From Conidiobolus incongruus B7586 (taxonomy: Eukaryota): DNA of 64,000 nt. The position numbers were made by a program, and so were the translations under genes. Shown here piece after piece: positions 770 to 61,930 of this stretch. Numbering within the stretch: the stretch's first letter is position 1; the number at the start of each line of letters is the position of its first letter. Location of the stretch: NCBI GenBank assembly GCA_000697335.1, contig JNEM01013221.1, positions 1 through 64,000 of the forward strand. The letters run 5' to 3'. The notes under the pieces are model-generated. The model did no database searches. It saw nothing but the letters and a program-made list of their open reading frames with translations, and had not been told where the DNA came from.

Positions 770-1559
770 ATCCTAATTATAATTATTCTCTTTATAAAAA
801 AACCTAATAAATTAAGGTTTTTATTTAAATTCCATAAAAAACTAAAATAACCAAATACTTAAGTGAAATGTATTTAAACTAGAAATTCTAAATATTGATT
901 TTGATATATCATTTTTACCACAATATATTTTTTGTTTATAAATTGATTAGAAAAAAAGGAATTGGGAGATTTTATCATTCTTTAAAATTAATAGCAAATC
1001 ATATAACTAATAATTTTAAATCAGAATCTATTATAGAAATTATTATATAAAAAGAAAAATAACTAAAAAGAGCAAAACAAACTTGATAAATAAAATGTAT
1101 AAAAATATATTAAATATGAAATAATAATATAATATTTTAATTTCCTTAATTTTATAATTTAAAATTGATGAAAAGTCAATTAATATTTTCAAAATAAAAA
1201 TATTAAAGGTTAAGATAGTCTTGTTAAAGATTTCAATAAAGTTTACTTAACAAGATATAAGAATACCTCTGGTTCAAGGTAATTATGATCAATAAATATC
1301 ATTTAAGCAAAATATTGGTAATTATTGATTTCTGGATTTGGAAATCAAATCAAGCAAAACTTTCAAATGTCCTTAATATTATGTAGAGATAGATCAAGGC
1401 ATCAATAATGTTATAAATATACTCCTTCACTCTCTAACAGTCAATTGCGCTAGTTTTCGAGGATTAGTACTGGAGCATACCCCTTGGAGTCTCTGGACTC
1501 CATGCAGGACTTGGACAGGGGTGATCAAATTTGACCAACTTTGGTCAGATTTAATTGTA
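770..1559 (+). mobile_element. Decayed Fanzor2/IS607-TnpB-like element, copy 1 (left boundary uncertain, may extend to the window start)
   Basis: Broken translations: IGRFYH (961), RFQ*SLLNKI*EYLWFKVIMINKYHLSK (1228), KTFKCP*YYVEIDQGINNVINILLHSLT (1356). These match the TnpB/Fanzor Zn-finger and RuvC-III end (KTFKCPxC...DRDxNxAxNIL). The 3' ~200 nt align with 31.1-31.3 kb and 52.3-52.5 kb. Confidence 0.85.
1441..1559 (+). ncRNA. Putative omegaRNA scaffold / element right end, copy 1
   Basis: Stem-loops at 1449-1468, 1472-1483 (GGAG-CATA-CCCC, one mismatch) and 1486-1501 (GGAGTC-TCTG-GACTCC, perfect). Near-palindrome at 1527-1552. Lies directly 3' of the nuclease C-terminus and is conserved in three copies. 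Confidence 0.6.
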
Positions 1560-2427
1560 TTTGTTTATTCTATCTCAGTATTTATAATAATAAAATAGAT
1601 AAATTAATTAGTTTGTAATTTCATTTATTATTTCAAATAATTTCGTATTTTTAAAATAAATATAATAACCTGATTATTATTTCTTAATTTATGGATAGCA
1701 TATAATGTATTATACATCGCTTTGTGTTAAAAATGAATCGTTACTTTAATAATCATTTTTCAAGATATTATATATAATTTCAAATTTTGCATTTATAAAA
1801 ATAACAAAAATCTTAAGATTTTAGTATTTAGATTATAGACTTGTATGACTTACTACAACACCTGAATTAAAATTTTGAATTTTAATTTTTGGTCAATATA
1901 AATAGTATAATAATATTTATATATAGATATATATATATTAATATCAAATTCAAAATAATGCAATTATTCATTTTATTACTGGTTGTACATATTATATTCT
2001 CTCAATGTCTATTCAACTAAAATTAAAAATTCGAGATTCACACCAGTTCTATTATATAGAAAAATTCTTCTATTTGAAATACACCTTAGGTGGTGTGTTA
2101 AATGTAGTCAATGTCTACGTGGATTGTATAATATATTTAGTCTTGATAAAAGCAATTTATAACATATAAAATGATTTTAACTTGGCTTGTGTTTTATGCT
2201 AAATGCCCAAATCCCCCATTTTAGCAAATTAAGTAAACCCTTTCAAAATTTACTATATAAATCAAGTAAAAGATAATTATTAATTGAGGATTTGCATTCA
2301 ATTAGGTTTTTGTCAATTAATAATTATTAATAGCAAATTCATGCAGTTTTGCCATACTTCAAATTAAAACTGATTCTAACTAAAACGTTTTTAACTACTT
2401 TGAAAAGTGTTAATCCTAGTTGTGAAC

Positions 2428-27990: not shown

Positions 27991-30529
27991 TCATTAATGA
28001 AATTTAGAATTATACTAATTTTTAATTATCAATTCATGCACATTCATTCAAATTAAAATATAACTAAAATTTTTTAATTTTGAATGTTTATATAATATAT
28101 ATAATATTACATTGGTAACTCTATAAAGTTCTTTAATAATAATCAGACAGAAAAAAAAATTAGAAATATATATTAATAAATATCTTTTTTTATTATTTCC
28201 ACACTTGGTAATTTAAGCTAAATAAAAGAGTAAAGTTAGAGTTTTAATTTAATAGGAGATTTACCTTGACTTAATACTTTATTGATAAAGAATAATGAAA
28301 AATATTAATGTGGCATAATTATTACTAGTGATTATTTTGAAAATTTATAATAATTACATCAATAGTATTTTAAAATTTGATTATTCCTAGAATATCTAAT
28401 GATTTCTAATGCACCAATCAATCTTTAATGAAAACTTAAATAGGTAATCATATCAAAATATTTTGGGATTGTTCTATAATATAATTTGGTTTCAACGATA
28501 TAATACTAAATATTTTATTATTATCATTAATCAAATATAGCTTATTTAGATTACATTTTTACTATTCAAATATCAGGGAGTTGGAATTTATTACGAATGG
28601 TTAACTTTTACCATATCACCTAATTATTTTATATATATTCCATAAAATATTCTACTCACAATCTGATAAAATTACTCTCAAATGCTTTGATTTTCCAGCT
28701 TAAATTCTTGATATCATTAATCAGAGTTGCAAATTATTTTATAGTTTCTTTTTATATTATATTAAATCCTTCATTTATCAATTGTATATTAAGCATTTAT
28801 ATTAATATATTAAATAATTAGTATTATATTTAATTACAATATAAGCGCCTTAATACATCTAAGGATTATATTACTTAGTATAATATCTATCAATATTAAT
28901 AATAAATATATTAAAATATCAAGGGAATTGTTTTCAAATTTATTGTATATCTCTTTTTTCTATAATGAATTTTAATTAATTAATTTTTTTATAGTTAATC
29001 AGATAAATAGCACTGATTTAACTTTAATCATGTGTTTCTTTTTCCTCCTCTTAATATCTTACTATTCCCTCTCTGATTATATTAAAATATTATTATTTTT
29101 TTAATAATTAAGATTGCTTTTAATTTTATTATATTATATTGAGATCTTTTGATATATATTAAGTAATATAATTATATAAACTCTTATAGTTATATTAACT
29201 AATATATTTCAAACCTAATTAAACTTACTGATATATTAAGTTAATTATGTCATTTTTAATCCAAAACTTCATTTATACAATAATAACTTTAACTATTGAT
29301 AAATCTTATAAAAATATCAAAAATTAACTTTTTTAAGAAATAGTTTGGTGATTTATAAATCACAATATATAGTTTGTTAATATTTTTTGCTTAAAAATTA
29401 AAAGATATGTAAGATAATAAACTTATATTACTATAATTTATATATAACATACTTTATACCATTATGCCAATTATAACCCTGTTTTATAAGTTTTTTGTTG
29501 AATAACTCTAGGAACAAAGATTTAGATGGATATAAATTTATTTTAATAATAATGATAATAAATTTTATAAATAACATTGGTGAGTATTATCTTTTATGGC
29601 GTAAACTTATTCCTTGTAATAAGCTATTTTATCTTAATAAATTCCATTAAGAAATCTTCAATATCTGAATTCAGTTAAAGGAGTAAAAAATATATACACT
29701 TTAAATAAATAAAAGTTTTACTTAATATATAAAATAATTATTAATACAATGCGATAACAGGTTGTAAACCAATTAAATATTTTAAAAAAGTTTTTCAAAA
29801 AACCAAAATCAAGGCTTTAAATCTGATATTTGAAAAAAAGGTTTTTGAATAGGATAGTTTTGAATATTAAATCAAAATTATATTATATTATATCTTGCCT
29901 TTAAACCATACTAACATAAGTATATAAAATGAATAACTTTATAGCGATTGTTATTTATATATAAAAAACTTTATCACTATAGATTTAATTTAACTGATTT
30001 TTTTACAATTGAAAATAAACATATATTTTTTAATTAAATCATCAAAGAATATGATTCAAAATTTAATTCATAGATAATCCACCTATTATTTGTAATTTTT
30101 TATAGTCAAGAAATCTAAATTATATTTGAAAAAACCAAAAAATATAATATATTGGAAAATCAAGAATAAAATCTTTTTAAAATATGAAATGAAAAAGACA
30201 TTGAAAAAATATTTTAAAATTCAAATAAATTGAATAATTAATATTTTATTATATCTAAAGAGATCAGTATTTTAAATTTGAAAAACTAAGGATCAAATGA
30301 ATAAATATAGATTATTTGAAATATTAATACTTATTAATTATTAAAAAATAACTAATAACCCTGTAAAAATATATAACACGATTATTATTACACAAAAACA
30401 TTCAAATTTGAAAGAGTAATAGAAAATAAATATTGATATAAATTAAATATTAACCAATTTGAATTATAAAAATTGTTGTTTTTATTTTACTATTTTTTAA
30501 AATAAGCCAATTACTCAATGGAACTATTA

Positions 30530-31314
30530 TTGGAAAAGCTCAATTATAATTTCTATCTTCAAAAAACAATACTTAGTGAATGTTATTTCCTCTTATAACA
30601 CTATATGATATTAAAAATGATGATTAAACTCTTAAATAAATAAAATTAAAAACCTCAGTTTATGATATTAAATCTTAAGCTTTTATAAAAGATAATTTTA
30701 TGGTTTGTTTATGAAATAAAAAAATATTAAGAAAAATCATTATCTTTATAATACATGTAAAAAGCCATAGAATAAATAGTTTAAGAAGTAATATGTTATA
30801 TGAAATATCACAAGGTGAGAAAAACAACCAATAATATTAAAAAGAAAAATCAATATATAAATAAGGTACATAAGAAATTTACCAAATTCATTATTAAACA
30901 ATTTCATATTACGACACTTCTCAATTTAAGATTTAAAGATGGTAAGAAGAGCTTACAAATATATTAAAAATATAAGTATGGAAGCAATGCTAAGATAACC
31001 TCATTACAGATCTAAACAACCCCTACTCAACCAAATAAGAAAATACCATTGGTATAAAGTAATCATTTATAACAAGCATATTATAAGTAAAAATATAATA
31101 ATTATGGATATTTGCATATAGAAACTAAATAAGGAAAACCTTCCAAGTATCCTTAATATTATATAGATCAAGGCATCGATACTGCTAAAAATATACTCTT
31201 TCACTATCTAAGAGCCAATCAAGCTGGTCTTCCAAAATTGGTATTGGGGTTTACCCCCTTGGAGTCTCCAGGCTCTATGCAGGACTTGGACAAGGGTGAT
31301 CAAATTTAATTGTA
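30530..31314 (+). mobile_element. Decayed Fanzor2/IS607-TnpB-like element, copy 2 (may extend left to ~29400)
   Basis: EKLNYNFYLQKTILSECYF (30533); INKVHKKFTKF; MVRRAYKYIKNISMEAMLR*PHYRSKQPLLNQIRKYHWYKVIIYNKH (30939); IDQGIDTAKNILFHYL; conserved 3' end. Confidence 0.85.
31215..31314 (+). ncRNA. Putative omegaRNA scaffold / right end, copy 2
   Basis: GGGG-TTTA-CCCC (31246-31257); GGAGTC-TCCA-GGCTCT (31261-31276, fully paired with two G.U); then ATGCAGGACTTGGACAAGGGTGATCAAATTTAATTGTA. Confidence 0.6.
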
Positions 31315-31741
31315 AGCGTTCTACTGTTCTATTATCAACATGTAATAGTTATGAATTATTAACAATTTTTCTTATAACGAATGATTTTTTGTTCTATTTA
31401 TAGAGTCTGATTTCTAATATTAATAAAAATAATAGATAAAACTTAAAAATTTAAATAATTTGAATATAAGTAATTTAGAAATAAAAATTACTTAATTTGG
31501 ATAAACTAATATTTGAAATATGTTCTAATATTACTAAATTATCAAAGTTTTGAAGAATTTGAAGTTACACAAATTCTCCCATGATCTTGTTATTAATAAA
31601 TATTTTAATCTATACAATTCACACTAATATCTCAATTCAAAAATGTTGAAAATTAAAATGTAAATGAAATTCCAGTATAAATAAGAATCCAGTCACTCAA
31701 AATTCTCATTCAAAATATTTTTTTAATCAGTTTTAATTAAG

Positions 31742-48355: not shown

Positions 48356-50530
48356 CTAATCCTTGTTAAATACATTGCGAGTTAAAGATGATACAGTTTT
48401 CTGGAAGATGGCACCGTCTTCAGCGTGAGGATTGGCTAATGATGGTACCTCACAGACATAAATCTTACCATCAGAGGCACCAATAGCGACTTTAGAGCCT
48501 TCTTTATCCCATTTAAGTTTGTTCAAGCCTCGTGAAGTTAAATTAATTGTGGAGGCAGGAATTTCAAGATCATGATTTAAATTCCATACACTAAAATTGC
48601 CACCAGCATCAACTGAGCCAAATGCAGCAGGATGTGAGGGGGACCATTGAGCATCGAGAACATAATCAGAGCCATGCTCAAATGAAACGAGGGGTGCAAT
48701 TTGAGTGGGTGTGGGAGAAGGACGGGTTAATGATTTAGCCTGCCACAATTTGATAGTCCAATCGAAAGAGGTGGTAAGGAAGAGATCCGAGAAATCAAGA
48801 GCTCCAACCTGTGGGTGGAAGTGCAGACTGGTAATTGGACCGCTATGACCAGTGTAAATATCATTAGGGTGGACACCAACCTTTATTCCTGCACGGTCGT
48901 AACGGTTGATTTGGTAAACTGCACCTTCCTCTGTACCTACCCAGAAGGTAGCGGTTTCATTGGTGGGGAAGTCGAGGGCAGTGATTCCAAGATCATCTGC
49001 ACGTAAAGGGCTTGGATGTAGTAATTCAAGTACTTCTTGGGGCTGAGCTAATAAATCTAATTGCCAGGCACAGATCATACCATCAGAACTTGCAGTGATG
49101 CAATTGTGGGCATTATGAGTTCCAATCATAGTTAAATTATAAACAGGATGAGTATGGCCAGTGGAATTTAGGGGACTCTTGAGCACTGGAAGGCGTTTGC
49201 TTCTAGTATCCCAGAGTAAAATCTGACCAGTGTAAGTTCCACCAACAATGTAGTTGGGATGGAAGGGAGAAAATTTAGCTGTTAAAACGTCACTTGGTGC
49301 ATGGAATACAAATTCTGCTCTATCTGTGAGATGGGTATTCCATACACAAACAAGACCATCGGGATCATGGGTTGCAGACAAATTCTTATTATAAGCACCT
49401 AAAAATAGTTCTGGGTATTTAATGGACCAATCAATATCCATCACTGATCTGTTTTTAGTGAGACGCTCATCAAAAAAGGTTTGCGTAAGTTTGATCGTTT
49501 CAACAGCTTCGTCTCTAATGGAAAACAAAAGTCAATGATATGATAAGGATTGGCTAAAATTATGAAATTACTTATTAAGGTCCTCAGTTTGAGTATAATC
49601 AACTAGATAATCGTAAGGTTGAGATAAAGCTCTTTCAACAACTTTTGATGAATTGTTAATAAATTCCAAGAATTCATCATTTGAGAGAATAGCTAAGCGC
49701 TCTTCTTCAGTCAATTCTAAATCAAAGTGATAAGGATAATTTCATCTACATTAATTTTATTTGAAGTACCCTTATTAATTTTCTCTTCTTCCAACTCTAA
49801 AGCTCTTGCCTCTTCTTCCAATTGAGCTTGTCTTAATTGCTCTTCCTTTTCTCTCTCCTCCTTAAGTCTACGTTGGACTTCTTCTTCATCAATAACGGGT
49901 TCATCGTACATACTAGAGGTAGTTTGAACCTCCTTGGAATAAAGGACTTTTTCCTATATATTTCAGCGTTAATTGTATGCTAATTGATGTTTCAATCAAT
50001 TAAATAATACCTTAGGAGGCTGATCGAAAATCACAGTTTCTACCATTTCTAATTTGACAGGAGGTCTAGAAAACCTTTGAAGTTGAATTAATTTAAATAT
50101 TAAGGGATTTACAAAGTAGAAAATTACTGAGGAGATTTGTCAAATGTAGGGGATAAAGTATTCAATGGAGTAGTATTGCCCCCTGTACCAGATAAGGAGC
50201 CTTGGTTAGATGAAAAGGAAATATCATCAGTATTTACACCGATAGATAAGCTGGAAGTAGAGTTGGTACGATCGCCAACGAGGGACGAAACGAGTTCGTC
50301 AATATTTTGTCTATGGCGACTGAAACTGAGATTTCCTGATAATCCTAATTCCTGAGCTGTAGCCTAATTAAATGCATGCTCAATTAAGTGGAATTTAATA
50401 AAATTTTTATCTGAATAATTACCTCATCACCAACCGATTGAGTCATAGTTTTCCTTCTTTCAGCTCTCTGTTTACGTAATTCCTGTAATTTTTGCCTTTT
50501 TGCATCGAGTTCAGCTCTTCTTTGTTCCAT
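48356..50530 (-). CDS. Cytoplasmic dynein intermediate chain (WD40), multi-exon
   Basis: MEQRRAELDAKRQKLQELR; YSKEVQT light-chain binding motif; WD40 repeats with GHTHPVY and LFLTTSFDWTIKLW. Confidence 0.93.
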
Positions 50531-51710
50531 TTTGAAATAAATTTAATTACAATTAAAATATTAAATAAAAAATTTATATTTTTTAATATTTATTTTATAA
50601 TTATTTAATTGCAGTATAAGTTTATATATGTTAAATAAAGAATATAATTTTTCAATTTTGACTTTTAAATTCAGAGTTTATTTAATTGTAAATGTTAAAT
50701 GATTTATCCCATAAATATGGTTCAAATTAATCTAATTGCATGTAATACTACTGAAAAATGAATTTACTAAATATATTATATTAATTAGTAAACTAAATTA
50801 TATCATAGTCAATATATTTATAATTATTTAAGAATTTTTCAAATTTACTAAATTAAATTGATGATTGAATAAAATTTGATTTAATCAGCTGATAAGACTG
50901 TGAATTATTAAGATTTAAAGATCAAATTCTTATAAAATCAAACATCAGCCCATTATAAAATATTTTTCAATTGAGTTAATTATAATGAAATTAATTCCTC
51001 ATATTCATTTCAGAACTTAAAATATAATTTGAAAGATTAATTGCAAAATAAGCAATTTATTATATATACTGATCTTATCGATTTTACTGTTTTCTAATGT
51101 AGAATACATCTTTGTAATCAATTAAAGAAATATATTTCTAGTTTTGCATTCAATTTTACCAATTTTTTATTTTTCAAAATTGTTAAATAATGTTATTCAC
51201 CAAATAAACATATTAATATAACTATAATTAAAAACTGAAGCTGAGTATAATGCTGTTCCCAGAATTTCCACTGGAACTGAAAACATCTATCAATATTTGA
51301 TCAAGATGTAGATAAGCTATCCCTGGCAGCACAGAAACTTGGATTTTATTTTATAAATACCAATTGTGATATGCTTGATTTTCAATTTAATTGTATTTTT
51401 ATTCTATCTAATTCAATTGCATTCCATTCAAATTTTAGTTTTGAATCATTGGTTTAATATATACATTTATTGAATACTCGCACCATTAATAATACCTATT
51501 AATTTAATTTCATCATCATTGATTTAGTACAAATATACTATATTAAGCTTAACACACTTCACTTTTTTTATTAATTTTTAAATTTATAGTCATTTTTGTT
51601 GTAAATATAAGGACTTAAAATCTAGATCAAAAAGTTAATTTGATTAATCTTAATCATTACTAACTTCCTTTGTTTATAAATATTAACAAGGTCCTACTAC
51701 TATTACAGTT

Positions 51711-52468
51711 GGTGAATTCTATCTTTGTATTCTAATGTAAATGGGAATTAAGTGTCATGACAAAGCTTGTAAATTAAATAAACTGAAAAGAGAATTTTTG
51801 TTCTTAACATACAAACTTTTACAACAGGCTGTTTTCTTTTTCGTTTGCTTATTGAATGGGGAAAACATTCAGGAAATTTATTATCTTTGTAATACTTATA
51901 GCAAAATATAAAGTAAAAAGTATTAGAAGGAAATCTGCTATAAAAGCACAATATTATAAGAAAAGCAACTGGTAAAATCAAAAAGAAGTTTAAAAATTTG
52001 ATAGATTTGGTTTATAAGAAACTTATTAAATTGATTGAACAACATCAAGTAGTTTTATTTCCTGAATTTAAGACTCAAAAAATGATAAAAAACAAATAAA
52101 TATAATGAAAGTAGAAGTATAGGAGTAATGTTAAAAGTAATCTCACTACAGATTTAGACAATACTTACTCAATAAAACAAAGGCATACCTTTGATACAAG
52201 CTAATCATTTGCAACAAATATCACACAGATAAAATATATGGTAATTGTGGATATTTACATATGTAACTTAGATAAGACTTTCAAATATCTTCAATGTCAT
52301 GTAAAAATGGATCAAGACATCAATATTGATACAAATATACTCTTTTACTATTTCACAGTTAATCAAGCTAGTCTTCCAGAATTAATGCTGGGATTTACCC
52401 CATTGGAGGTTCTGGACTGCGTGCAAGACTTAGATAAGGTTGATCAACTTTGGACAAGTTTAGTTGTA
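51711..52468 (+). mobile_element. Decayed Fanzor2/IS607-TnpB-like element, copy 3 (most legible)
   Basis: GEFYLCI (51711); RIFVLN-IQTFTTG..IEWG (51785, RuvC-I 'ALDPGVRTFMTG' relic); NLIDLVYKKLIK..VVLFPEFKTQKMI; SHYRFRQYLLNKTKAYL*YKLIICNKYHTDKIYGNCGYLH (52141); KTFKYLQCHVKMDQDINIDTNILFYY. Confidence 0.9.
52358..52468 (+). ncRNA. Putative omegaRNA scaffold / right end, copy 3 (more degraded)
   Basis: GCTAGTCTTCCAGAATTAATGCTGGGATTTACCCCATTGGAGGTTCTGGACTGCGTGCAAGACTT... aligns with copies 1 and 2; ends TTTAGTTGTA. Confidence 0.5.
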
Positions 52469-52777
52469 TATATTAGATTAACTAATGAATTTAATTAATA
52501 TAGTTATTATTAATTTGATAGAAAAATTTATACTCGAGAATTATCAATTATACAATATATTCAAAAAAATGATAAATTATATAAAGTTATTTTTATGGTC
52601 ATGAAAAATTATTCAATAAATCATAGTAAGCAATTAAATATAAAAATTGAAAATATAATTAATAAAAGACTTATTGATTATATATATATTGATTTTTACT
52701 TATTAGCTGTAGATTAAATAATTAAAATATGTAAAATAAAAATGAATAATTATATTCAATCCTATGAAATTGGGTTT

Positions 52778-54013
52778 CTAATTCAAAGGTAAACCGTCTT
52801 GACCAAGTAAAGTCATGGATGCATCGGCAACGCGAGGTCCATCGCCTAATTTAGTATGAAGAATACTCTTAATGGAATCAGCAGGAAATGGGTCAATGAT
52901 CTTGGAAATAGATTCAGGAATTTGATCAGCGCTGGAGGTAGACCATTCTTGAGAGTTGTTGAATAATTGATAAGGATCCTTGAAATAAGTTTCGGGGATG
53001 GAACCAGGGAAGAAGTAAGCAATAATGGGGATGATTTCCTTGATAGCATCACGGGGAGCATAAAGGACAGCATTTGGTCCAGCATCGTAAGTGTAGGCAA
53101 CACGAACTCCCTTAGGGCCTTTGTTGAATTCAGTAACCAAGCGGACAATGGCTCTGGAAACATCATTCATGTAAGAGATAGGAGGATAAGTGTCAAGACA
53201 GACAGCGTGGAATTGGTTACTATCTTGCATGGTCAATAGAGCGAAAGTTTCAAAATCACGATCCAAAATAGCCTTCTTCATTTGCTCCATTCTTTCGGGG
53301 ACAACATTTTTGATACGATATTGGAGTAAGGGAGATGTCTTGACGGTAGTTTGCATGCCAACAGTACTACTGGTGGCTTTCTTGGCATCGCTGACGACCA
53401 AGATCAAAGCCTCAATTTCGGGCCAGTGAGTCTCAGGAGCAATTTGGACAGCTCTGCTGTCTGATCCATCTTCCTTTTCACCCATTTCCCAAGCGACAAA
53501 TCCTCCAAATAAGGAACGACAGGCAGAACCCGAGCCAACTCTAGCAATCTTGGACATCTCTTCCAGAGAAATGGGAAGTTCGAACAACTTGCATAAAGTA
53601 AATACAAAACAAGCGTATCCAGATGCGGAAGAAGCGAGACCAGCAGCGGTAGGGAAGTTGTTGACGGAGCAGGCGTGGATATTCAAAGTGGATAACTTTT
53701 CAGCATCAGGATTGTTGTCTTCGAATTCTTTTCTCAACTTACGAGTCTCATTCAAGCAGTTTTGGAGTCTCTTGCTATTTGCAACATCTTCTTCTTTACC
53801 GTTGAGCCAAAGTCTATCTTGGGTGAATTCAGAGCTGACAGCAATGGTAGTTCTAGTCTGTAATTGATCTTGAGAGAGAGTACCAGAGAGTGATGAGTTG
53901 GTAGGCAAAATCAATTTTTCGTCTCTCTTTCCCCAGTATTTAATCACAGCAATGTTAACGGGAGCTGTACAAGTGATCTCTTTTTTAATAATATTAGAAT
54001 TATTTAAGCTCAT
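52778..54013 (-). CDS. MVD1: Diphosphomevalonate decarboxylase, intronless
   Basis: APVNIAVIKYWGKRD; NNFPTAAGLASSASG; GSGSACRS; AYTYDAGPNA. Confidence 0.98.
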   Translation of the reverse strand: MSLNNSNIIKKEITCTAPVNIAVIKYWGKRDEKLILPTNSSLSGTLSQDQLQTRTTIAVSSEFTQDRLWLNGKEEDVANSKRLQNCLNETRKLRKEFEDNNPDAEKLSTLNIHACSVNNFPTAAGLASSASGYACFVFTLCKLFELPISLEEMSKIARVGSGSACRSLFGGFVAWEMGEKEDGSDSRAVQIAPETHWPEIEALILVVSDAKKATSSTVGMQTTVKTSPLLQYRIKNVVPERMEQMKKAILDRDFETFALLTMQDSNQFHAVCLDTYPPISYMNDVSRAIVRLVTEFNKGPKGVRVAYTYDAGPNAVLYAPRDAIKEIIPIIAYFFPGSIPETYFKDPYQLFNNSQEWSTSSADQIPESISKIIDPFPADSIKSILHTKLGDGPRVADASMTLLGQDGLPLN

Positions 54014-58504: not shown

Positions 58505-61500
58505 CTACCATTTAAGAGATTCAATATCTTCGGCACTAGCACAGTTCTTCCTGTTTGAAGAAGTCAATGGCTGAGTCAAAGTGGATTTAACATTTTCAAA
58601 TTGAGAGATGTCGTTGGACATAGCAGCACGGAACAATTTAGATCCATATTTGGCATACATTTCAGAAACACCACCACCAGCCATCAATCTTTCTTCCATC
58701 TTACTCAATTGGAAGGGAAACTGCTCGCCATTGCATTTGATGATGCGATTAGGTACATCAATTTCAACTTCAGCACCTTCTTGAGCCAATTCGTAGAATC
58801 TTTCATCAGCAAGAGTAATGCCCAAGAGAGACATGTTGGGCTGATTACGAGAGTAAATAAAGGCAAATGACTTGGCAATTACAGCCTTGACACCGGCACC
58901 CTTGAGAGCACGAGGAGCTTCTTCACGAGAGGAACCAGAGCCAAAACCGATGCCACCGACCACAATGTCGAAACCGGCCTTGACCTTTTCAAAGAATTCG
59001 GGACGGTAGTATTGGAATGAGTGGGTACCAAGATCTTCATCGGATGTACCAGGCATAAATTGAGCTGGAATGATAGCATCGGTATCAATGTTGTCTTCAA
59101 ATCTTTGAACCTTTCCTGAAATAACTGGAATTCCAAAGGATTCACCAGAGCCTTCAGCAGCTGAACTTTGACCTTGGGAGGCACCAGTTGGAGTAGAGTC
59201 AGCGTAGAGTGGATTGGGTTCAGAAATTTGGACGGGTTGGTTCTTGTCGAGCCATTGATCAAGCATCTCGGCATAACGTTGACGATCAATACCTTCCAAG
59301 AGTTCTCTGGGGTCGCGAATCTTCATATCGAAACTACTGGCGGCGACGGTAGCAGCACTGGCCAAATTACCAATACTACCCTTACCCATTCTGTTTCTAA
59401 AGTTCCTGTTTTGGGAGCTGAGCCATACTTCACCTTCTTCGGCCTTATCAGCAGCTACAGCAATACAGTATGAGCAGCCAGGAGCACCAATTTCGAAACC
59501 GCATTGTTCATAAACGTCAAGCAAGCCCAATTTTCTCAATTTGGCAACGATGGGAACAGATCCGGGTGTGACCTTACGCTTGCCACCAACAACAGGTACC
59601 CAGCCCTTCTTGAGACCTTGTTCCAAGACAAGACCAGCAAGGATAAGATCTTCTTCAGCAGTGGTACAAGCACCAATGAAACATCCATCGAGTTCTTTGC
59701 CTTCAACTTCTTTGACGGAAACGACATTGTCAGGAGAAGGATAGATGGCAACCAAAGAATCAACCTTGGACAAATCGATGGTATAAGATTCAGCATACTC
59801 AGCATCTTCATCAGCCTTGAAATAAAGAGATGAATTCTTATGCTGAGGAACCTTACGCTTCTGAATGAAAGTTTGAGTAATTTCATCAGCTTCGAAAACA
59901 CCAGCAATACCACCAAATTCGGTGGTCATGTTGGCAATGGCAAATCTAGCATCACAACTGAGGTGCTTGAGGCCAGGACCAGTAAATTCAACAGCTCTTT
60001 CGAAGGCAACAGTGTTACGCTTCAATTCACCCATGACATACAAGATAGTATCCTTACCACCAATACCGAAAGGAGGTTCATTAATAAATCGGATGTTAAG
60101 AACTTCGGGAACTTTGAACCAAGTTTCACCCGTGACCAAAGGCATAAGAACATCAGCAGCACCCAAACCAACAGCAAATGCACCGACAGCACCGGCGGAG
60201 CAACTGTGAGAATCAGCGCCGACAATGACCATACCGGGCTGAGCTCTTTGGCGGTAGAATTCAGTGTGAAGAATAGTTTGATTAGGGCCATAGAAATCGG
60301 TCAAGTTGGCTTCTTTAGCAAACTTTTCAGAAGCAGCAATCAACTCTTTAGGTTTAGGAAGGTGATTGATCTTGGGATCCACGGTATGATCGATAGCAAG
60401 CCAGAATCTATCATTTCTATGAATTCCGGGACGGCCCATCTGTTCGTATGTCTTTTCCATACCTTTCCATGTAAGTTCGGAGGCCAAAGTCCAATCAACG
60501 CGTACACAAATCATATCACCAGGTTTGATATTACCAGGTTCTTCGAGTCCAATGGCAGCATGGCAGAGAATTTTTTCACAAATAGTCATACCTCTTCTGC
60601 CAGGAGGACGCTGGAGAAGAAGCTGCTGACCAACACGTGGACCAGGAGACCTGGATCCAGATCTTCGTTTAATTGAATTTTGAAGGGCTTTGACAATTTG
60701 ATCTCCAATCTCGGCAGTTGAAGCTTGACCGCCCAAGTCTTTCGTCCTGAGCTCAAGACCTCCTGAGCTCTTTTCATCTAAGACTTTACGTACTGCATCT
60801 TCAACCAATTTGGCTTCACTGTGAAGTCCTAAAGAGTATTTGAGGAGCATTGCAGCGCTGAGAATGGTACCAATAGGATTGGCAATACCTTGACCAGCAA
60901 TATCGGGAGCAGATCCATGGATAGGCTCATAGAGACCAAAGCAAGGATTTGCACCATCTGGCAAACCGTTGAGAGAAGCCGAGGGAAGGAGACCCAAACT
61001 TCCAGGAATTACACTTGATTCATCACTCAAGATATCACCAAACATGTTTTCAGTAAGGACGATACCATTCAACTTAGTGGGACGTTGAACCATTAACATA
61101 GAAGCAGAGTCAACCAAGTGGTGATCAAGAGGTACTTGAGGGAATTCTTTCTCAAATACTTCAGTAACAACACGACGCCATAGACGGGAAGTGGCAAGGA
61201 CATTAGCCTTATCAATGGAGTGAACAGCAAGGGGAGGGTTATGTTGAGAAGCCATCGTGCCTGCAAGGCGAGCTATTCTTTGTACTTCGGAAACCTTATA
61301 GGGCATTGTGTCATAAGCTAAATAAATAATTAGATTTTAACTAAAGTAAACTCACAATATAAATTACCTAGACCATCAGCATCTTCTTCTTGTCTCTCGC
61401 CAAAGTAAACACCCCCAACGAGTTCTCTTATGACGATGAATTCAGTACCTTGGACCACTTCAGATTTTAGAGGGCTATTATTTACAAGTGATTGACTGGG

Positions 61501-61930
61501 GAATACACAAGGTCTAATATTAGCAAATAGATCCAACTCTTTGCGAAGGCTCAACAACCCTTGTTCAGGGCGAGGTCCAAGTCCCTTAGAGGAATCGGAG
61601 GGATCTACAGGCTTGGGCCATTGAGGACCGCCAACAGCTCCCAAAAGGATAGCAGTGGCTGATTTACAAGCTTCAGCTGTAGATGGAGGGAAAGGATGAC
61701 CTTTGGATGGGATTAGATAAACCTTTAGTATTGAAGAGTTAGGATTTACCTGTCTGATCAATAGCATGACCACCAAAAGCATGTTCTTCAAATTGAAATT
61801 CCCATGTATCATTGTTTTGAGCAATTACTTCCAAAACTCTTCTAGCTTGAGCGGTGACTTCGGGACCAATCCCGTCACCTGGCAAAACAACAATCTTTGC
61901 TATTTTTTTGCTATTTGTATATGTACTCAT
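58505..61930 (-). CDS. Fusion of 3-isopropylmalate dehydrogenase (Leu2/LeuB) with aconitase-family isomerase large (LeuC-like) and small (LeuD-like) domains; exons 61930-61750, 61700-61368, 61317-58505; ~1108 aa
   Basis: [28 protein letters not shown] and [12 protein letters not shown], then without a stop or intron [51 protein letters not shown] and [10 protein letters not shown]. Confidence 0.93.

Follow-up and report, generated by a model that had tools for sequence, protein, structure and literature searches.

Decayed remnants of a Fanzor2-bearing IS607-type transposon in the genome of Conidiobolus incongruus

Three AT-rich stretches lie between genes in a 64-kb window of the genome of Conidiobolus incongruus B7586 (the window is the whole 64,000-nucleotide stretch that we analysed, positions 1 to 64,000 of contig JNEM01013221.1). 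They raise the question of whether they descend from a transposon that encoded an RNA-guided nuclease and, if so, of which kind. A preliminary description, made from the letters alone, had proposed dead copies of a Fanzor2-type element. The reading that we favour, at a probability of about 0.88, is that the stretches are three dispersed and long-dead remnants of a Fanzor2-bearing IS607-type transposon that likely spread through this genome long ago.

Homologous relics and their surroundings

The window has the AT-rich composition of fungal DNA (28% GC overall, 20% in non-coding DNA) and holds housekeeping genes that include a WD40 gene, a mevalonate diphosphate decarboxylase (MVD) gene and a Zn2Cys6 factor. 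The genes adjoining the relics, the Zn2Cys6 factor among them, are fungal or eukaryotic, which places the relics in a eukaryotic genome, as expected of Fanzor2. The region is present in four DNA runs, all of one sample. A single contig (runs X1 and X4) runs through copy 3 and reaches 1515 nt into the MVD gene end with zero differences, and the copy 3 stretch is therefore not an assembly artefact. A second locus (contig record 7 in X1, 13 in X4) is about 85% identical to window positions 52442-52814, and appears to be a duplicated or homeologous segment of the genome. Because this match extends from the right end of copy 3 across the flank into the MVD gene end, the insertion likely predates the duplication of the segment.

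Elsewhere in the window, a stop-free frame of 943 residues (58505-61824, − strand) encodes the C-terminal part of an isopropylmalate/isocitrate-type dehydrogenase (best match LeuB) followed by a complete aconitase-family hydratase with large and small subunits, and the next frame upstream holds more dehydrogenase sequence. The arrangement resembles a fusion gene of the LeuB-LeuC/D or the homoisocitrate dehydrogenase-homoaconitase type; a literature search by title returned no paper on a fusion of either type.

The three stretches are homologous to one another, as had been proposed. Blastn aligned copies 1 and 3 at 68% over 595 columns (E 7e-51), copies 2 and 3 at 69% over 630 columns (E 3e-62) and copies 1 and 2 at 72% over 356 columns (E 7e-51), and these pairs were the only off-diagonal matches at E<1e-5 in a self-search of the whole window. 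A 26-nt pattern from the tail of the element matched the window exactly three times, a count reached by 0 of 100 shuffles. The proposed series of protein motifs was found across frames, although several of its motifs proved to be composites of two or three copies. The features are as follows.

51705..52472, + strand: copy 3, the 3' third of an IS607-Fanzor2 element (WED end, split RuvC, zinc finger, omegaRNA tail and right end)
51791..51832, + strand: copy 3, RuvC-I relic with V-L-N in the DPG column; the catalytic Asp codon (51800-51802) is GTT
52055..52084, + strand: copy 3, LFPEFKTQKM, with Pro at the canonical RuvC-II Glu position
52216..52218, + strand: copy 3, the shifted catalytic Glu of RuvC-II, replaced by Lys (AAA)
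52237..52297, + strand: copy 3, zinc-finger relic, two of four Cys remaining
52310..52357, + strand: copy 3, RuvC-III DQD (Asp 52316 kept, Arg>Gln) and the NILLxYLT end
52360..52472, + strand: copy 3, relic of the omegaRNA template, with a decayed right end (GTATATA, where relatives have GTAAGCG)
about 30447..31318, + strand: copy 2, RuvC-I Asp kept (30664), Glu>Lys (31074), DQG (31166-31174)
31310-31318, + strand: copy 2, intact right end TTGTAAGCG
897..1563, + strand: copy 1, the most decayed, RuvC-I Asp kept (897), Glu>Lys (1294), DQG (1392-1400)

Copy 2 starts about 85 nt earlier than first described, and the part of copy 1 at 770-970 is weak. The 5' limit of copy 1 is uncertain, with blastn similarity from 971 and a secure start from about 900-970. 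For the 85-nt extension of copy 2, the scores with two of four test proteins were reached by 0 of 200 shuffles. The 5' reach of copy 2 exceeds that of copy 3 by about 120 nt, so the copies have no common 5' end. Extending the element upstream from the similarity of copies 1 and 2 was rejected as too weak (it scored 215.5, and the highest of 16 natural AT-rich controls scored 194), and neither the left ends of the copies nor an insertion-site dinucleotide was found.

Single reading frames of the relics are nearly invisible to standard protein models. Nine of them, with X at stops, gave one weak Pfam match (PF07282, E 0.18), NCBIfam gave nothing among eight translations from the window, and searches of the PDB, a protein collection, plasmids and viral contigs returned nothing useful. 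The lack of a significant Pfam or NCBIfam match speaks for the reading that the relics are Fanzor1, or a chance similarity of AT-rich DNA. Because single frames scarcely match Pfam or NCBIfam, we collected relatives from outside the window. PEFKTQKM of copy 3, used as a search pattern, found seven loci in viral contigs, all seven coding for TnpB/Fanzor2-type proteins. A frameshift-aware profile built from such viral proteins gave copy 3 a score of 80 bits, whereas the highest of 150 shuffles scored 24.9; copies 2 and 1 received 35 and 21 bits, again reached by 0 of 150 shuffles each. Once the strictest null was applied, copy 1 lost its significance with the viral profile: 106 of 150 shuffles reached its score.

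A C-terminal pattern search then yielded 46 metagenome and 2 viral loci. With a frameshift-aware profile of 25 of these outside relatives, a conservative null and both strands of the window, the three copies took the top three places (copy 3 69.6, copy 2 28.3 and copy 1 22.6 bits); the next score was 21.0, which makes copy 1 only marginal by protein score. An outside DNA profile of 12 sequences gave exactly three nhmmer matches, the copies themselves (E 5e-30, 2e-17 and 2e-12), although relatives retrieved with motifs taken partly from the window itself favour look-alikes. Scores in host genes under an AT-rich null, including apparent 'TnpA' and 'N-terminal' scores at 50116-50336 in a host exon, were composition artefacts that vanished under the conservative null. 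The homology, the shuffles and the outside profiles together refute chance AT-rich similarity. Relics of this Fanzor2 kind evidently hide below Pfam detection.

Placement, right end and route of movement

We placed the relics with a quick IQ-TREE analysis of 92 rows, with SH-aLRT support and without Fanzor1 rows; roughly one third of the bacterial rows entered it, with 15 of the P proteins, and a further 150 representatives added outgroup rows only. The relics form one clade (SH-aLRT 98, a value that common decay can inflate), sister to the metagenomic element L159 (90). Together with L159 they are nested in a 31-row clade (98) of metagenomic IS607-Fanzor2 elements, TnpA-bearing members included, and cyanobacterial pro-Fanzors form a separate clade (100). 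L159 is 60-63% identical to each copy at the DNA level, agrees with their tail nearly letter for letter over 25 nt and ends in GTAAGCG; it and L157, L132, L115 and L128, all metagenomic IS607-Fanzor2 elements, gave the best pairwise scores with the relics. L159 and L157 are cut by the ends of their contigs. Unlike the relics, full-length members have an intact D-E-D triad, a zinc finger, an HTH domain and an overlapping TnpA gene, and all 15 full-length relatives checked carry DPG, the shifted Glu, TSKxCxxC and DRD.

The full-length protein of L132 scores above the guided_TnpB cut-off, and its best PDB match is 9B0L (E 1e-27); the 16 matches at E<=10 include no Fanzor1 chain. We take 9B0L to be ApmFz2, the mimivirus protein L79, which lies in an IS607 element. 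The mark of Fanzor1, a divergent clade on eukaryotic transposons, is not seen when the relics are judged through their intact relatives. The blastn homology, the ranks in the outside-profile and nhmmer searches, the tree, the PDB matches of L132 and C-terminal motifs matching proteins labelled FZ2 in the consulted portion of Saito et al. 2023 all stand against Fanzor1 or chance, a reading that we consider scarcely credible. The proposed Fanzor2/IS607 assignment is thus borne out by the tree position among TnpA-bearing elements, the match of L132 to 9B0L and the kind of right end, and the relics descend from an IS607-Fanzor2 element.

Two relatives deserve a remark of their own. L017 (19-3340), like L018, L161 and L162, holds a complete IS607 element in which TnpA overlaps Fanzor2, and the ORF just ahead of the L017 element is presumably that of a giant-virus major capsid protein. 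L035, a 2116-nt contig from a Hydrogenophaga MAG, carries a Fanzor2 that falls in the clade of the fungal relics rather than among bacterial TnpBs; the contig may have been mis-binned.

The right end of the element can be located through the tails of its relatives. The L159 tail aligns to all three copies. Forty-nine tails were collected, of which 22 were dropped since our script did not find the hairpin or right end, and merging of duplicates left 20. In 17 of these 20 distinct tails, the hairpin loop carries a 5-mer that is reverse-complementary to the one preceding the terminal (C/T)G. The 17 comprise nine pair types, against a mean of 2.7 and a maximum of 9 in 5000 shuffles, a comparison that does not correct for relatedness. 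The relatives thus have a conserved, covarying pseudoknot, which is predicted to fix the 3' end of the omegaRNA; a pseudoknot of this kind was tested in ISXfa1, according to the available part of Yoon et al. (bioRxiv 10.1101/2023.08.09.552727). This pairing in the relatives fixes the right ends of our copies at 31318 (intact GTAAGCG) and at 52472 and 1563 (both decayed). Copy 2 keeps four Watson-Crick pairs and one G-U pair; copies 1 and 3 keep four of five pairs, and their terminal GCG has decayed.

Pairing in the first hairpin of the tail is lost in all copies, single-strand folds of the three tails are weak (z −1.5, 0.2 and −2.5), Rfam had no match for L159, and the 26-nt tail pattern had no match in metagenome contigs, although L159 departs from it only at the last base. 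Selection on the tail was considered and set aside, as transitions relative to L159 in the whole tail (47 of 159) did not differ significantly from those at ORF positions 1 and 2 (65 of 168; p 0.10). The 25-nt tail core (52417-52444, 31277-31300 and 1501-1525) and the small hairpin show 6 transitions in 67 positions relative to L159, in segments picked post hoc. In copy 1, a near-perfect hairpin at 1527-1549 (the TGATCAAATTTGACCAACTTTGGTCAGATTTAA region) stands just before the right end; copy 3 has a shorter version of it and copy 2 has none. The stretch GGTGATCAA, in common with L017, was dropped as a coincidence after the right ends were mapped.

No TnpA relic was detected beside any copy or in the window, and so the copies show no trace of the serine recombinase that lies upstream of the nuclease in IS607 elements; no Fanzor N-terminal half was detected beside any copy either, and the RuvC half and the tail are all that can still be recognised. 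The IS607 mobility of these very copies is accordingly attributed from their relatives, with a TnpA match (TnpA query, Resolvase) in 28 of the 48 related loci. The missing TnpA lowers the case for complete IS607 elements at these sites, not for their descent. It also fits a Fanzor2 carried by a eukaryotic cut-and-paste transposon (Fanzor2*) instead of IS607, and such captures are described for Mya and Chloropicon in the accessible portion of Yoon et al. (bioRxiv 10.1101/2023.08.09.552727). The right end, however, is of the IS607 kind and common to TnpA-bearing relatives, which makes such a carrier very unlikely here. IS607 elements have neither terminal inverted repeats nor target duplications and insert at a short dinucleotide core; in analyses aimed at other features, no inverted repeat or target duplication stood out around the relics.

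For an IS607-Fanzor2 element, the literature on IS607 and TnpB suggests how it would have moved. A live element would have been mobilised by TnpA. The 3' end of its transcript would fold into the omegaRNA, with the loop of the small hairpin paired to the last bases of the element in the pseudoknot, and the next ~17-20 nt, from the flanking host DNA, would serve as the guide. After excision, the nuclease would cut the emptied site, and repair from an element-bearing copy would restore the element there. Neutral, AT-biased mutation would then have decayed the copies.

Loss of function and copies elsewhere in the genome

The catalytic residues have been lost in much the same way across the copies. 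The shifted catalytic Glu, whose place is six residues ahead of the zinc finger, has become Lys in every copy (AAA, AAG and AAA), and the Arg of DRD is CAA in all three (R>Q). The RuvC-III Asp has become Gly in copies 1 and 2, which read DQG; copy 3 reads DQD and retains two of the four zinc-finger Cys. Pro at the canonical RuvC-II Glu position is present in copy 3 (LFPEFKTQKM) and lost in copies 1 and 2. In RuvC-I, the DPG column reads D-F-D in copy 1, D-I-K in copy 2 and V-L-N in copy 3, and an ungapped register of all three places GAT (897), GAT (30664) and GTT (51800) in the Asp column. This register makes it most likely that the Asp of copy 3 changed to Val and that its 'N' is the decayed Gly of DPG. 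The preliminary description had read D>N at this position, which would need a 6-nt deletion in all three copies; its other catalytic losses, E>K in all copies and RuvC-III D>G in copies 1 and 2, stand. The best path through copy 3 crosses about seven frameshifts and two stops. With the Glu replaced by Lys, DRD reduced to DQD or DQG and the frames broken, all three copies are, judged from sequence, dead, as first thought, and could not support RNA-guided DNA cleavage.

The copies are old. K2P distances between them are 0.39-0.42, and, relative to L159, about 40% of the G/C sites have undergone transitions, compared with 13% of the A/T sites; L159's own divergence is part of both values. The excess of G/C>A/T changes would fit ordinary drift towards the 20% GC of non-coding DNA. 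Because this decay is heavy and one-directional, a majority reading of the copies keeps dead residues. It had been suggested that a working enzyme could be rebuilt from a three-copy consensus; with E>K and R>Q common to all and D>G in two, that consensus would be dead. As a by-product, this work yielded 15 full-length metagenomic relatives whose catalytic motifs are intact, together with the covarying pseudoknot, and these are better candidates for testing than any reconstruction.

CpG is depleted in the relics (770-1561, 30535-31317 and 51685-52470), with an observed/expected ratio of 0.16 (six seen) against 0.62-0.64 in coding and non-coding window DNA, which may reflect methylation of repeats. 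At CpG, however, the rate of transitions relative to L159 (0.48) is not raised above that at CpA or CpT (0.43 and 0.45). This context test does not single CpG out, and RIP is not needed to explain the decay.

The losses common to all copies could also mean that the copies were amplified from a master that was already nuclease-dead (E>K, R>Q) and non-autonomous, mobilised in trans, an idea that is compatible with our main reading. E>K and the CAA at R553 occur in all three copies, the alternative TGA in none; copies 1 and 2 have in common a stop, a frameshift site and, at the RuvC-III Asp, a non-decay A>G change; and the number of G/C sites altered in every copy is 24, where a uniform rate would predict about 8. 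However, part of these 24 sites reflects divergence on L159's own branch, and a per-site loss near 40-50% leads one to expect G>A changes in common often. A conserved Trp codon has decayed differently (TAA, TAA and TAG), derived states common to two copies occur in each of the three possible pairings (14, 13 and 8), and the 5' limits differ between copies. We regard a dead master as possible, if on balance unlikely.

Other copies of the family exist outside the window. At 80% identity, up to 12 other contigs of run X1 cover a single position of copy 3, and at copy 2, 14 plus 4 contigs (18) continue with the family right end as a loose end. Copies 1 and 2 themselves fall below 80% identity to copy 3, so these contig counts are lower bounds. 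The family is thus multi-copy, on other contigs of the genome, as had been proposed, and the term 'high-copy' is likely to be right.

One contig of 143 nt, covering the ORF end and tail (window 31175-31307) with 22 differences from copy 2, has a depth of 156.9 against 29 for the locus contig. This ratio of about five, which is not a copy number, is what several near-identical copies would give, and other contigs keep ancestral bases at several sites, as a young subfamily might. Both observations would suit a genome in which a young, possibly intact and active subfamily persists elsewhere and the window holds only old debris. Against this, among the matches listed, the part of copy 2 or 3 that any one contig fits at >=80% is no longer than about 145 nt, and the loose-end consensus of 6 and 3 other contigs also has Lys in place of the catalytic Glu. 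A segmental or tandem duplicate, moreover, would give the same high depth. We think such a subfamily unlikely. Less likely still is its strongest form, in which a young intact IS607-Fanzor2 subfamily would persist among tens to hundreds of older copies whose tails form a guide repertoire. If true, it would offer a natural fungal host for watching Fanzor2-assisted transposition, and a native eukaryotic Fanzor2 for editing. Our main reading remains that of long-dead remnants, and the finding would matter more only if an intact, active copy existed in this genome.

Comparison with known Fanzor2 elements

The preliminary description had named Fanzor1 as the type of the best-known fungal Fanzors. 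That Fanzor2 in a fungus is unexpected is not supported. Bao and Jurka 2013, in the part available, report Fanzor2 in four yeasts and Fanzor1 in early-diverging fungi, and the text consulted of Saito et al. 2023 (PMC10432273) describes Fz2 as broad in fungi. Its Supplementary file 3, as far as it was accessible, contains FZ2 rows from Rhizophagus, Ambispora, Diversispora, Gigaspora and others, including these matching entries:

Rhizophagus irregularis CAB5365895.1
Rhizophagus clarus GET01997.1
Ambispora gerdemannii CAG8576195.1
Diversispora epigaea RHZ54568.1 and RHZ61369.1
Gigaspora margarita CAG8716393.1

Six early-diverging genus names that we guessed are absent from the portion of that table covered. 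A literature search returned no paper devoted to this Fanzor2 family in fungi; the supplements of Jiang et al. and Yoon et al. may add fungal copies.

Among characterized proteins, ApmFz2 (9B0L) resembles the family in its DPG, its Pro at the canonical RuvC-II Glu and its Glu six residues before the zinc finger. In the portions available, DPG is given as the RuvC-I motif of Fanzor2 by Yoon et al. (bioRxiv 10.1101/2023.08.09.552727) and Pro or Gly at the canonical RuvC-II Glu by Jiang et al. In contrast to the relics, ApmFz2 is viral, intact and shown to be active (Jiang et al., as far as consulted), and it is only distantly related. Cyanobacterial IS607 'pro-Fanzor' TnpBs, in the sources seen in part, have the active-site arrangement found here and a pseudoknotted right-end RNA, in a clade that is separate.

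A like series of motifs is seen in the Glomeromycotina FZ2 entries, which, in the part of the table consulted and compared by eye only, have LGEFYLCIP, DPGVRTFMTGYDP, IEWGK, LLPEF, HxRFxQxLL, NILL(R/H)YLT and an AGxYP tail as in the relics. Most of these entries are themselves broken, and some come with TnpA sequence. They differ from our copies, which sit in a different, AT-rich fungal host and are too decayed to be called genes. On this motif match, the Glomeromycotina FZ2 proteins appear to be the family of the relics. Since that family is already catalogued, a fungal Fanzor2 is not new, and the relics add one fungal host to an IS607-Fanzor2 family known in Glomeromycotina.
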